A stretch of 64,000 nt of DNA from Octopus vulgaris. Its lineage: Eukaryota. The stretch covers positions 35,650,001-35,714,000 of the forward strand of contig OX597819.1 in the NCBI GenBank assembly GCA_951406725.2. Reading direction: 5' to 3'. The notes below the pieces were generated by a model that did no database searches, had not been told where the DNA came from, and worked only from the letters and a program-made list of their open reading frames with translations. The translations under genes were made by a program, and so were the position numbers. Below, piece after piece: positions 3,513 through 50,089 of this stretch; the stretch's first letter is position 1, and every line of letters begins with the position of its first letter.

Positions 3513-4124
3513 TTAAAATAAGGTAATTAGAAATATTGAATTTCTAAATGTCGCAGAGAGACATAAGTGGTGGTGAAGCGATATAGTGGTCATATACTGT
3601 CAACTCAATGTGACAGTCCCGTGAGGGAATTACACCACTGCCATTTAGCCCTAGAAAACATCGACGTCTCCTGTCAGCTGTGACGCATTTTCTGTGTCAG
3701 CGGTGGTGTAATTCCCTCACGGGACTGTCACATTGAGTTGACAGTATATGACCACTATATCGCTTCACCACCGCTTATGTCTCTCTGAGACATTTAGAAA
3801 TTCAATATTTCTAATTTCCGTGATCAGTAAATAAATTTTACTGATAATATGATATGTTTGCAGAGAGGTTGCAGTCATCTCAGCGAGCGAGACAGGCTAC
3901 CCTGAACTGACCATGAGCAATACACTCAGAAACATATGTCTTCAGGTGCTAGTCCCAGCTGGCGGGGGTGATTGCCTCCCCTTTGCAAATATAAGGACAC
4001 AGAAAATGTGTCAAAGCCGACCGGAGACGTCGATGTTTCCTAGGGCTAAATGGCAGTGGTGTAATTCCCTCACGGGACTGTCAGATTGAGTTGACAGTAT
4101 ACGACCACTATATTAAAATAAGGT
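3513..4124 (+). mobile_element. Hammerhead-bearing retrozyme-like element, family R1 copy 1 (inverted piece + 353-nt redundant monomer)
   Basis: TSD ttaaaataaggt at 3513-3524 and 4113-4124; inverted segment 3525-3698; gtggtgtaattccc repeated at 3703 and 4056; homologous to 40356-40728. Confidence 0.75.
3901..3946 (+). ncRNA. Minimal type I hammerhead ribozyme motif (G8C core mutation, probably inactive)
   Basis: cctgaa-CTGACCA-tgag caataca ctca-GAAAC ATAT GTC-ttcagg: stems I and II pair, stem III palindromic. Confidence 0.75.
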
Positions 4125-4128
4125 GATT

Positions 4129-34705: not shown

Positions 34706-36047
34706 TAAGGGCCTTTCTATGGAAAATACTTAGCAAACTTGGATGTCCGGATCATTTTGTATCTATAATTAAATCATTTCATGATGGGATGGAGGCTTGG
34801 GTCAATGTTGGTGGTGCCATGGTGGGACCCATTCCTGTAGAGAATGGTGTCAAGCAGGGTGACATCCTTGCCCCAACTCTCTTTTCTTTGTACTTTGCTG
34901 CTGCTTTTACTCATGCTTTTGCTAAGGTTAGCTCTCTGGGAATATATGTCAGATATTGATCTTCTGGCCGCCTCTTTAATCTTCACCGATTTGCTGCCAA
35001 TTCAAAGGTTTCCCAGTCTATTATTTGTGACCTCCTTTATGCAGATGACTGTGACTTAGTCACTCATACAGTGGATGACATGCAAATACTCATGAATTGC
35101 ATTTCTGCTTCTTGCAGGGCATTTGGACTCAGCATTAGCCTGGACAAGACTGTTGTAATGTTCCAGCCTGCACCAGGAAATCCATATATAGAACCAGCTA
35201 TCTTGGTTGAAGGAACAATTCTGAAGGTAGTAGACAAGTTTGTCTACCTGGGCAGCACACTCAGCCGTTCTTGCTCCCTGGATGAAGAAATATCTTTCAG
35301 GTTGCAGAGAGCAACTAATTCCTTCCGGTCTCTTTAGTCTCGTGTCTGGTCCCAACATGGCATCGCAAGGAGAACAAAAGTTGCTGTGTACCGTGCTTGT
35401 GTACTGACATCGCTTCTCTACTCATGTGAGACATGGACTCTGTACAAAGGTCAGGTAAGGGTCCTTGAACGTTTTCATCAGAGATGTCTCATACGCATTC
35501 TCATTGTTGGCTGGACCTCAAAAATTCCAGACACACAGATCCTGAGGACAGCTGATATCTTGAGTATTGAGGCGATGGTACACAGGCACCGGTTGCATTG
35601 GACTGGACACCTTATTAGAATGGAGGATAGAAGGATTCCTAAGCAGATGCTCTATGGAGAACTTGTGAATGGAAGGAGACTCCAGCAGAAACCAAGGCTA
35701 CGATTTAAGGACTATGTCAAGTCCTTGTTAAAGGCTTTTGATATACAGGACACTGACTGGGAGAACAATGCCTGTCATCGCCACAGATGGAGAAAGCAGG
35801 TTAAGGAGGGGATCGACACTTTTGAGAGAGCACATATCCAGTATGAAGAACTTAAGCGAGCTGTGCGAAAGCGCATGGCTCGTATAGTGAATGGGGAAAG
35901 CTTGGTCTGCAATGTTTGCAGTCGTGTATGCTTGTCAAGAGCAGGGCTAATTAGCCACCAACGGAGCCGCAAATGCAAAATATAAGTTAGTCCTAGAGTG
36001 CACAATGTTCCTGAAGGTCGGCAATGGTCTTCCTCGGTCACGAGTGG

Positions 36048-38723: not shown

Positions 38724-38848
38724 ATTAATTTATTATATAGTAGGAGCTTCTACAGGACTAGTACTGTTTCATTCAAGAGAAATCTTCAGGAAGATTTCTC
38801 TTGAATGAAACAGTACTAGTCCTGTAGAAGCTCCTACTATATAATAAA

Positions 38849-39804: not shown

Positions 39805-40260
39805 TTGATTTAAAATTTTGGCACAAGGCCAGCAATTTTGAGGAAGGGATTAAGTCGATACATTGACCCCCGTACCTAACTGGCACTTATTTTATCAACC
39901 CTGCAATGATGAAAGGCTTAGTCGACCTTGGTGGAATTTGAACTCAGAATGTTAAAGATGGATGATCTGCCATTAAGCATTTTGCTCAGTGTGCTAGCTT
40001 GTCACCTTATGACTGTAAATATATTATTATTTATAAGACACAAGGTGGCAAGCTGGCAGAATCATTAGCATGCTGGATGAAATGCTTTGCGGTATTTTGC
40101 CTGTTTGTTACATTCTGAGTCCAAATTCTGCTAAGGTTGACTTTACCTTTCATCCTTTTGGGGTCGATAAATTAAGTACCAATGAAACACTGGGGTCAAT
40201 GTAATCGACTAGTCCCCTCCTCTAAAATTTCAGGCCTTGTGCCTTTAGTAGAAAGGGTTA
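39805..40260. mobile_element. Two SINE family B copies in opposite orientation (39805-40008 minus, 40043-40260 plus)
   Basis: Both match 55728-55960. Confidence 0.8.
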
Positions 40261-40299: not shown

Positions 40300-40740
40300 A
40301 AATTTAATATTAGAGTGGTTGTATACTGTCAACTTAACCTGTCATCAGCCCAGGATTAGAAATTTAATATTTCTGATTACGGTAACCAGTGAATAGATTT
40401 CACTGTAAATATATATATTTGTGAAGGGTGGACAGGCACCTCAATCAGCAGATCTCACTATCCTGGGCTGATGACGGGTTAAGACCCAGAAACATGCATG
40501 TCCTCAGGTGTGAATCTTGGCTGGTAGGGGTGCTTGCCTCCCCTTCACAAATATAAGGACGCAGAAAATGTGTCAAAGCCGACAGGAAGTGTTCGATGCT
40601 TCCTAGGGTTAAATAGCGGTGGTGTAATTCCCATACAGGACTGTCACGTTAAGTTGACAGTATACAACCACTCTATCGCTCCACCACCGCTCATGTCTCT
40701 TTGAGACATTTAGAAATTTAATATTTCCAAATTTAATATT
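40300..40740 (+). mobile_element. Hammerhead-bearing retrozyme-like element, family R1 copy 2
   Basis: TSD aaatttaatatt at 40300-40311 and 40729-40740; inverted piece 40312-40355; ttagaaatttaatatttc at 40356 and 40710 (354-nt period). Confidence 0.8.
40462..40508 (+). ncRNA. Minimal type I hammerhead ribozyme with intact core
   Basis: cctggg-CTGATGA-c gggt taag accc a-GAAAC ATGCAT GTC-ctcagg; palindromic stem III; predicted cleavage after 40502. Confidence 0.85.
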
Positions 40741-49519: not shown

Positions 49520-50089
49520 CTATCTGTAATCTTGAGGGGGCCAAAAACGCAACAAATATTTACCAACGTATGGACATGACCCGAAAAGTTCACTTCTTGA
49601 ATTTAGACATGTAGCGGGGTCTAAGCTGCTTTTCCAGATGAGCCATCTTTCCATATCACAAAGACCACACTTTCCACTGCCGTTGGTGTAGGGCTTACAC
49701 TTGGCTAAGATCTTCCAATGGATGTTGTAACTGACACCTTTATATTTTAAGGACCATATGTGACTGGATAATTTAGTTGTTTTCCTTTTATCCCAGTGTC
49801 TGAAGCTCAAGGTGTGATTATTGAACCTGGCATTGAAATTACCCTCTGTAAGGCCCATGTATTTCTTCGTCAAAACCATGTCCTTAGTGGATATAGAGTC
49901 CACAGTGGCTTCATAAATGATGGTCTTGGACATGCAAGCTCCATTTAGCGGGCACAGATTTTTATCCCTGCATGAACAGCTGGTTTCACATTCTGGTTTT
50001 TGTGTGTTGTGTGTGATTATATGTTCAAAATTAGTAGTTGAGCTGAAACTGATTTTTAAGTTATGTCTATTGAAGAGCTTTCTGTGTGC
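49520..50089 (-). pseudogene. Penelope-like element (PLE) GIY-YIG endonuclease domain, 5'-truncated
   Basis: Stop-free frame KLFNRHNLKISFS...CSCRDKNLCPLNGACMSKTIIYEATV...YMGLTEGNFNARFNNH...WKIL...CGLCDMERWLI...LNSRSEL. Confidence 0.85.

Follow-up and report, generated by a model that had tools for sequence, protein, structure and literature searches.

Non-LTR retrozymes have been described in coral, mussel and axolotl (about 353 nt) (PMC7229834), and cleavage and ligation have been shown for the mussel, coral and axolotl elements. Molluscs are already represented by the mussel Mytilus, whose retrozymes of 350–390 nt are accompanied by circular RNAs (PMC7229834), so the view of the octopus element as the best candidate for an undescribed system, put forward in an initial annotation of the sequence, is not supported. 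A review from 2020 describes retrozyme repeats as lacking a conserved motif that would indicate a helper (PMC7761336). A preprint from 2026 makes the case that retrozymes in animals are non-autonomous sequences belonging to Penelope-like elements (PLEs), on the basis of co-occurrence and of similarity to PLE pseudo-LTRs (pLTRs; 24 of 57 Xenopus families); the sampling it describes includes no mollusc, and the mechanism is left open there (10.64898/2026.07.22.740005).

PLE insertions comprise partial tandems, an inverted truncated arm and an optional tail of 30–40 bp at one end (PMC8557442, PMC3846280). In Anolis Poseidon, this tail is the stretch between two internal start sites of the reverse transcriptase (RT) downstream of the hammerhead; one start site lies in an AC-rich stem-loop, and AT-rich DNA is nicked on both strands (PMC11167929).

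Here, we analyzed an insertion in a 64-kb stretch of Octopus vulgaris DNA (the window). It is very probably a dispersed copy of a 354-nt, ORF-less, hammerhead-bearing non-LTR retrozyme, likely inserted in trans by the RT/GIY-YIG endonuclease of a PLE. The retrozyme class is known and a link between retrozymes and PLEs has been proposed; the new part is junction-level evidence on the helper question. So far, the helper enzyme of animal retrozymes has been argued from co-occurrence and similarity, and it is the junction ends in octopus that name the enzyme class. Our literature search returned no report of a cephalopod retrozyme (the supplements of PMC7229834 and 10.64898/2026.07.22.740005 may list cephalopod elements) and, in the texts it covered, no analysis of retrozyme junctions. 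The words 'ribozyme' and 'hammerhead' have no occurrence in the main text of the 2026 Octopus vulgaris repeat annotation (PMC13282606).

Comparison with described elements

The octopus unit resembles metazoan non-LTR retrozymes (PMC7229834) in its non-coding length of ∼354 nt, 44% GC and strong self-pairing, in a type I hammerhead with a weak stem III and head-to-tail copies, and in target-site duplications (TSDs) of more than 4 bp and co-occurrence with autonomous PLEs. It differs in that family 1, to which the window copy belongs, is mostly dispersed as insertions of 0.8–1.8 units with inverted arms, and in its host, which that work does not cover. We found no fixed two-point ends among the features given for metazoan retrozymes in PMC7229834. 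With a length of 354 nt and a GC content of 0.44, the unit falls within the 150–450 nt and <50% GC that delimit retrozymes. It shows every feature of non-LTR retrozymes that can be read from sequence; lacking an ORF, it does not qualify as an autonomous PLE.

With the vertebrate PLE-derived retrozymes (10.64898/2026.07.22.740005) it shares a proposed dependence on PLEs, dispersed monomers and rarer multimers; the octopus unit has no pLTR homology among 60 Neptune-like loci, but its junctions carry the PLE signature. The likeness to EN+ PLEs (PMC8557442, PMC3846280, PMC11167929) extends to the two end points, the optional tail, the inverted 5′-truncated arm, TSDs on the scale of 8–10 bp, AT-rich or microsatellite targets and an AC-rich initiation region past the hammerhead. 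Unlike these PLEs, the retrozyme has no ORF, its tail measures 44–59 nt (30–40 in PLEs) and the unit closes on itself. Non-autonomous PLEs of Chlamys, such as MRC1, are likewise ORF-less, head-to-tail and PLE-mobilised; however, the 3′ end of MRC1-type PLEs resembles autonomous partners, and their clades are reported to be without canonical hammerheads (PMC8557442).

Anatomy of the window copy

The insertion region spans 40300–40740 of the window, with unit position 1 at 40356. One full 354-nt unit lies on the plus strand (40356–40709), with an 18-nt direct repeat at a spacing of 354. On the same strand, a type I hammerhead motif (40462–40508) is found at the tip of a long stem (40414–40555) that covaries between subfamilies. 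The parts named in the initial annotation are directly seen: an intact CUGAUGA, GAAA and GUC, the last ending at the predicted cut after 40502, together with a palindromic stem III (40492–40501). Stem I has 6 bp. The description of the motif as 'canonical' is too strong, given a C·A mismatch at the base of stem II and an Rfam scan, a check suggested at the time, whose 31 matches at E ≤ 5 include none to a hammerhead model. The perfect part of the long stem had been given as 14 bp, which is correct for the family; in the window copy it reaches 15 bp (40414–40428 with 40541–40555), owing to G40428, a base unique to it; of 34 other aligned units, 32 have C there.

Downstream on the plus strand follows a structured domain (40557–40691) of two hairpins and a multiloop closed by 40615–40624/40682–40691. 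Its position is conserved in three families, and it is likely a module that recruits the RT. Near its 3′ side lies end point 1 (plus strand, 40671–40681; unit 316–326), in a predicted single-stranded, AC-rich stretch ∼173 nt past the predicted cut. From here the tail between the two end points (plus strand, 40676–40727; ∼56 nt in the family) runs on into the next unit. In the window copy it contains the 18-nt redundancy (40710–40727) and ends 4 nt short, at unit position 18. The terminal redundancy is thus present as first described, but it is not a fixed feature: it marks where the 5′ truncation of this copy fell, other insertions ranging from 0.83 to 1.81 units.

Upstream of the unit is an inverted leader of 46 nt (40311–40356), made of two minus-strand parts. 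The first (40311–40338, unit 320→293) begins at end point 1, and the second (40333–40356, unit 128→105, or 122→105 past the shared word) runs antisense to the hammerhead's 5′ half. Both share a 6-nt microhomology word at 40333–40338, in agreement with the chimeric leader noticed earlier. We infer a second priming site where the leader starts at end point 1, and a template jump at the microhomology. The two arms of the window copy end at unit 320 and unit 18, one point per arm.

A dimer of the unit has a longest stop-free stretch of 67 codons and a longest ATG-started frame of 29 codons; no RT/GIY-YIG ORF of an autonomous EN+ PLE was found in the unit, nor a tblastn match to one in the window. 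The whole insertion folds with a z-score of −11.5, equalled by 0 of 100 shuffles, a value inflated by the inverted arm, and the 354-nt unit alone, folded as a circle, has a z-score of −8.7 against shuffles. With its one hammerhead, the window copy is probably an inert product and an unlikely source, which on its own would release no monomer. The weight of our argument rests on the conserved two-point ends of the family and not on this single copy.

The insertion is flanked by a target-site duplication

A 12-bp sequence is present on both sides of the insertion, at 40300–40311 (its final T common to the inverted arm) and at 40729–40740, where one extra C (40728) separates it from the element. 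This 12-mer also matches unit positions 5–16 exactly. We considered an origin from the element and rejected it, as paralogues of the flanking repeat hold the 12-mer singly at the same place: among five such paralogous empty sites, two carry the same 12-mer once, two carry a one-base-shorter variant once and one lacks the stretch. Because the 12-mer occurs only once in these paralogues, the duplication is a true TSD, as had been proposed.

Of 40 family-1 junctions, 12 lay in non-simple sequence and had exact duplications of at least 8 bp, as did a further 6 of the 40 in microsatellites, compared with 1 of 200 shifted controls; TSD lengths ranged from 8 to 18 bp. Duplications of family 2 in non-simple sequence (2 of 19, against 3 of 95 controls) were not clearly above control.

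Copies end at two fixed points

For family 1, 2,919 first-look candidates emerged from a search of the genome (2.8 Gb, 227 contigs). The best 40 of these were scored, and the near-full-length best matches among them were 88–100% identical and lay on many contigs. We mapped 40 distinct insertions (29 from 30 loci, one being a duplicate, and 11 fetched additionally), which are the best-scoring copies and not a random sample. Nine 10-kb stretches at arbitrary positions contained no family-1 and one family-2 insertion, too few for an estimate of copy number. The view of a dispersed, TSD-forming, non-coding retroelement of the retrozyme type was borne out, with copies on many contigs and without an ORF.

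Almost all outward 3′ ends of the 40 insertions (57 of 59) fell at two points ∼56 nt apart, 30 at unit 15–25 and 27 at unit 316–326, with 2 elsewhere. The outward 5′ ends were scattered over 21 values, from unit 9 to unit 347. Two arms were present in 19 of the 40 insertions, and in 16 of these 19 each arm used one of the points. From the two-point ends and the use of one point per arm, it follows that the inversion of the leader and the 'terminal redundancy' are by-products of PLE-type insertion. What had been listed as a separate inversion is therefore part of the known PLE insertion signature.

Runs longer than 1.15 units were seen in 19 of 40 insertions (range 0.83–1.81 units), with units arranged head-to-tail and no ORF. 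A tandem of more than four units is present at locus L215 (G000:C14, about 15.9899–15.9914 Mb), and 4 of 29 loci from a dimer search had two parsed hammerheads on one strand. The permuted ends rule out an LTR layout.

TSDs of 8–18 bp and 5′ inversions are also produced by LINE machinery. A repeat of SINE-like or satellite origin that a LINE moves through twin priming, or that multiplies by duplication at the DNA level, would share these features, and RTE-like fragments, identified by eye, are present in the window. Yet the copies have no poly(A) or simple-repeat tail of their own, their ends lie inside a unit that is circularly permuted, and the inverted arm begins at a second fixed 3′ point and not upstream of the truncation. 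We consider such an origin exceedingly unlikely.

A second family insertion in the window belongs to subfamily 1b (3513–4125, plus strand; ∼80% identical). Its inverted arm starts from end point 2 and its main arm ends at point 1; it has a 12-bp duplication, read by eye, and a decayed hammerhead core (G8 to C). A genome search with subfamily 1b gave 517 candidates. Separately, six loci on G000:C17 (L168–L171, L177 and L178) have in common a single truncated copy with identical junctions, which suggests that this contig has undergone segmental duplication.

Two further families share the layout

Beside PLE loci, we found two more retrozyme families. In family 2 (360 nt, U3-A8 core, 2,822 candidates), 22 of 30 ends fell at two points, as exemplified by L061:940–1490, which ends at unit 132 and unit 191. 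Family 3 (353 nt, 2,285 candidates) had 38 of 39 ends at two points, and in 16 of 16 two-arm loci each arm used one point; this tally was taken from a printout of 23 loci, which include two duplicates of each other and 12 loci chosen for multi-unit matches. Family 3 targets (TA)n, with arms of up to 6.0 units and insertions of up to 6.0+1.8 units (for example L097:1–465 and L231:470–3209). Judged by the identity of its copies (98–99%), it is a very young retrozyme family.

The three families are homologous and colinear, with 52–58% identity over 353–360 nt (0 of 200 shuffles reach the score), and their predicted hairpins largely match. In families 1, 2 and 3, the cut site precedes end point 1 by 173, 176 and 174 nt, respectively. 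These comparisons bear on the possibility that the copies are 5′-truncated pseudo-LTR stumps of an autonomous PLE and have no independent life, for which the ends, the inversions and the hammerhead, all the same as in PLE pLTRs, could be cited. A stump of one autonomous element is unlikely because the three families keep length, fold and end points while diverging. The initial annotation had itself proposed looking for a permanent connection to a Penelope ORF; past end point 2, the copies run into the next unit and never into an ORF. Furthermore, in a tblastn search of 219 sequences with the Neptune protein (see below), PLE fragments lay near only three distinct family-1a insertions (L003, L182 and L204) among the top-scoring matches. 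We regard this explanation as largely refuted and very unlikely.

Conservation of the hammerhead and its predicted fold

The hammerhead core is intact in 28 of 35 aligned family-1 units, and 27 of these 28 have the C·A mismatch at the base of stem II. Between subfamilies and families, changes in stems I and II compensate one another, and the core stays CUGAYGA between subfamilies. Stem III remains palindromic in all three families (10, 8 and 6 nt), also across an indel between subfamilies. In the long-stem arm, 89.7% of cells are paired, compared with 38–49% in slid controls, and 14 of 47 pairs show two-sided change; the pair-type count was not above shuffles (500 of 500), and the two subfamilies provide few independent events. 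Within subfamily 1a there was no covariation signal (term 0.03).

In the predicted monomer fold, stem III has a probability of ≤0.01. In the natural dimer L004 (G000:C18:59357909–59358550), the two palindromes are predicted to pair with each other, which would correspond to a double-hammerhead arrangement as described in PMC4209133. As for activity in related systems, 8 of 9 Xenopus retrozyme dimers showed no cleavage in vitro (10.64898/2026.07.22.740005), and the hammerhead of Anolis Poseidon was dispensable for insertion in vitro (PMC11167929).

Search for the helper element

The octopus genome contains young PLEs with intact 781-aa RT+GIY-YIG frames in many copies (L051, L053 and L062), which we take to be of the Neptune clade from their linker motif. 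An upstream frame overlaps the 781-aa frame at a T-run, a possible frameshift, and the elements carry a U3-A8 hammerhead. Their ends, too, fall at two points within (TA)n, ∼70 nt past their own hammerhead, compared with 173 nt in the retrozyme. By sequence, we found no solved structure like the Neptune protein.

To compare the retrozyme with PLEs at the DNA level, we used 60 PLE stretches from 40 of 148 GIY-YIG matches (themselves from the best 150 of 6,136 candidates), all of them Neptune-like by similarity. The only DNA similarity between the unit and these 60 loci came from (TA)n matches and from a family-2 retrozyme nested in one. Likewise, the GIY-YIG search, BLAST and tblastn found no autonomous homologous partner among the Neptune-like loci. 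The tblastn search with the Neptune protein also gave weak matches at L132 and L150, and none was continuous with the unit where inspected.

That the helper belongs to the PLE class is well supported by the junctions. As to which PLE, we lean slightly towards the Neptune type as the most likely helper. The predicted start positions are exact and shared by three diverged families, and the genome also holds intact young PLE frames and a very young retrozyme family. A defined in vitro test thus becomes possible, with a 354-nt RNA, two predicted start sites and one candidate protein, and it would bear on whether PLE partial tandems arise from circles.

Circular or linear template

None of 30 loci (12 of which repeat earlier ones, with 7 sharing one junction) had a 5′ end within unit 146–150, at the cut site. 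Cut linear monomers are therefore not the usual template, and templates run through the site. In 38 of 43 head-to-tail comparisons and 22 of 24 inverted ones, which are not independent, units resembled each other more closely within an insertion than across insertions, and in family 3, single-locus variants at L238 recur in every pass of both arms. Likeness of units within an insertion and locus-specific variants running through both arms are what a circle predicts. Three tandems are mixed: L192 has two stem II variants, L215 includes two units without a hammerhead core, units of L215 and of L192 carry different hammerhead variants, and L233 is mixed as well. These tandems are incompatible with a single monomeric circle; multimeric or switched templates also occur. 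At L012:1365–1436, the inverted arm ends exactly at the hammerhead GUC, without microhomology to the flank (1 of 59 ends), a single sign of cleavage in vivo that we treat as a hint. Taken together, the template was probably a circle.

The same element and helper could also work with a linear multimer that is left uncut and stems from read-through of a tandem locus, with a weak or occasional hammerhead and no circle. Unprocessed RNA was the main substrate of Anolis Poseidon in vitro (PMC11167929); the mixed tandems and the C·A mismatch in stem II point the same way, and the absence of 5′ run-off at the cut site fits equally. Against it stand the core and the palindromic stem III, kept through compensating changes in three families, the homogeneity of arms that reach up to 6 units, both arms carrying variants specific to the locus, and the hint from the GUC end at L012. 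We consider the linear multimer less likely than not.

In contigs from four runs that we guessed to be RNA, depth was far higher over unit 200–350 than over the hammerhead; as contig depth sums all copies and the subfamilies differ upstream of about unit 170, we read neither expression nor circularity from this profile. In two of the four runs, a joint skips the element; it is probably a paralogue of the flanking repeat.

For the favored circular template, a plausible sequence of events would begin with read-through transcription of a source locus with two or more units. Two palindromic stems III may then pair into the predicted double hammerhead, from which a monomer would be released and ligated into a circle. 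A PLE protein would nick AT-rich or (TA)n DNA with a stagger of ∼8–18 bp, the length of the observed duplications. The nicked strands could prime cDNA inside the RNA at two fixed points, ∼173 and 229 nt past the cut, which would yield the observed ends of the main arm, the inverted arm and the optional tail, by analogy with the biochemistry of Anolis Poseidon. The enzyme would next continue past the hammerhead site over a variable distance; the simplest route, in our estimate also the probable one, would be round the circle, the alternative being the uncut multimer. Finally, the two cDNAs would be joined by microhomology, in the window copy after one template jump.

More tentatively, and somewhat short of probable, at least three families may represent an old, self-standing lineage of ∼354-nt circular-RNA satellites of PLEs. 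Such satellites would have no sequence in common with their helper and would have kept a folded RT-recruiting module and a first priming site half a circle (173–176 nt) from the ribozyme, and they would be copied by rolling-circle reverse transcription in which both strands of the target supply primers on a single circle. If true, the genomic junctions would be the first direct footprint of the enzyme that moves animal retrozymes and of its start site.

Other features of the window

A near-perfect hairpin with ∼50 bp per arm lies at 38738–38839; its matches to miRNA models were all below gathering scores. Fragments at 34960–35985 and 49520–50089 resemble, by eye, the RT of an RTE-type LINE and a PLE-type endonuclease end. 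At 39840–40227, immediately upstream of the insertion, a common repeat occurs in two opposed copies that make up a long inverted pair.
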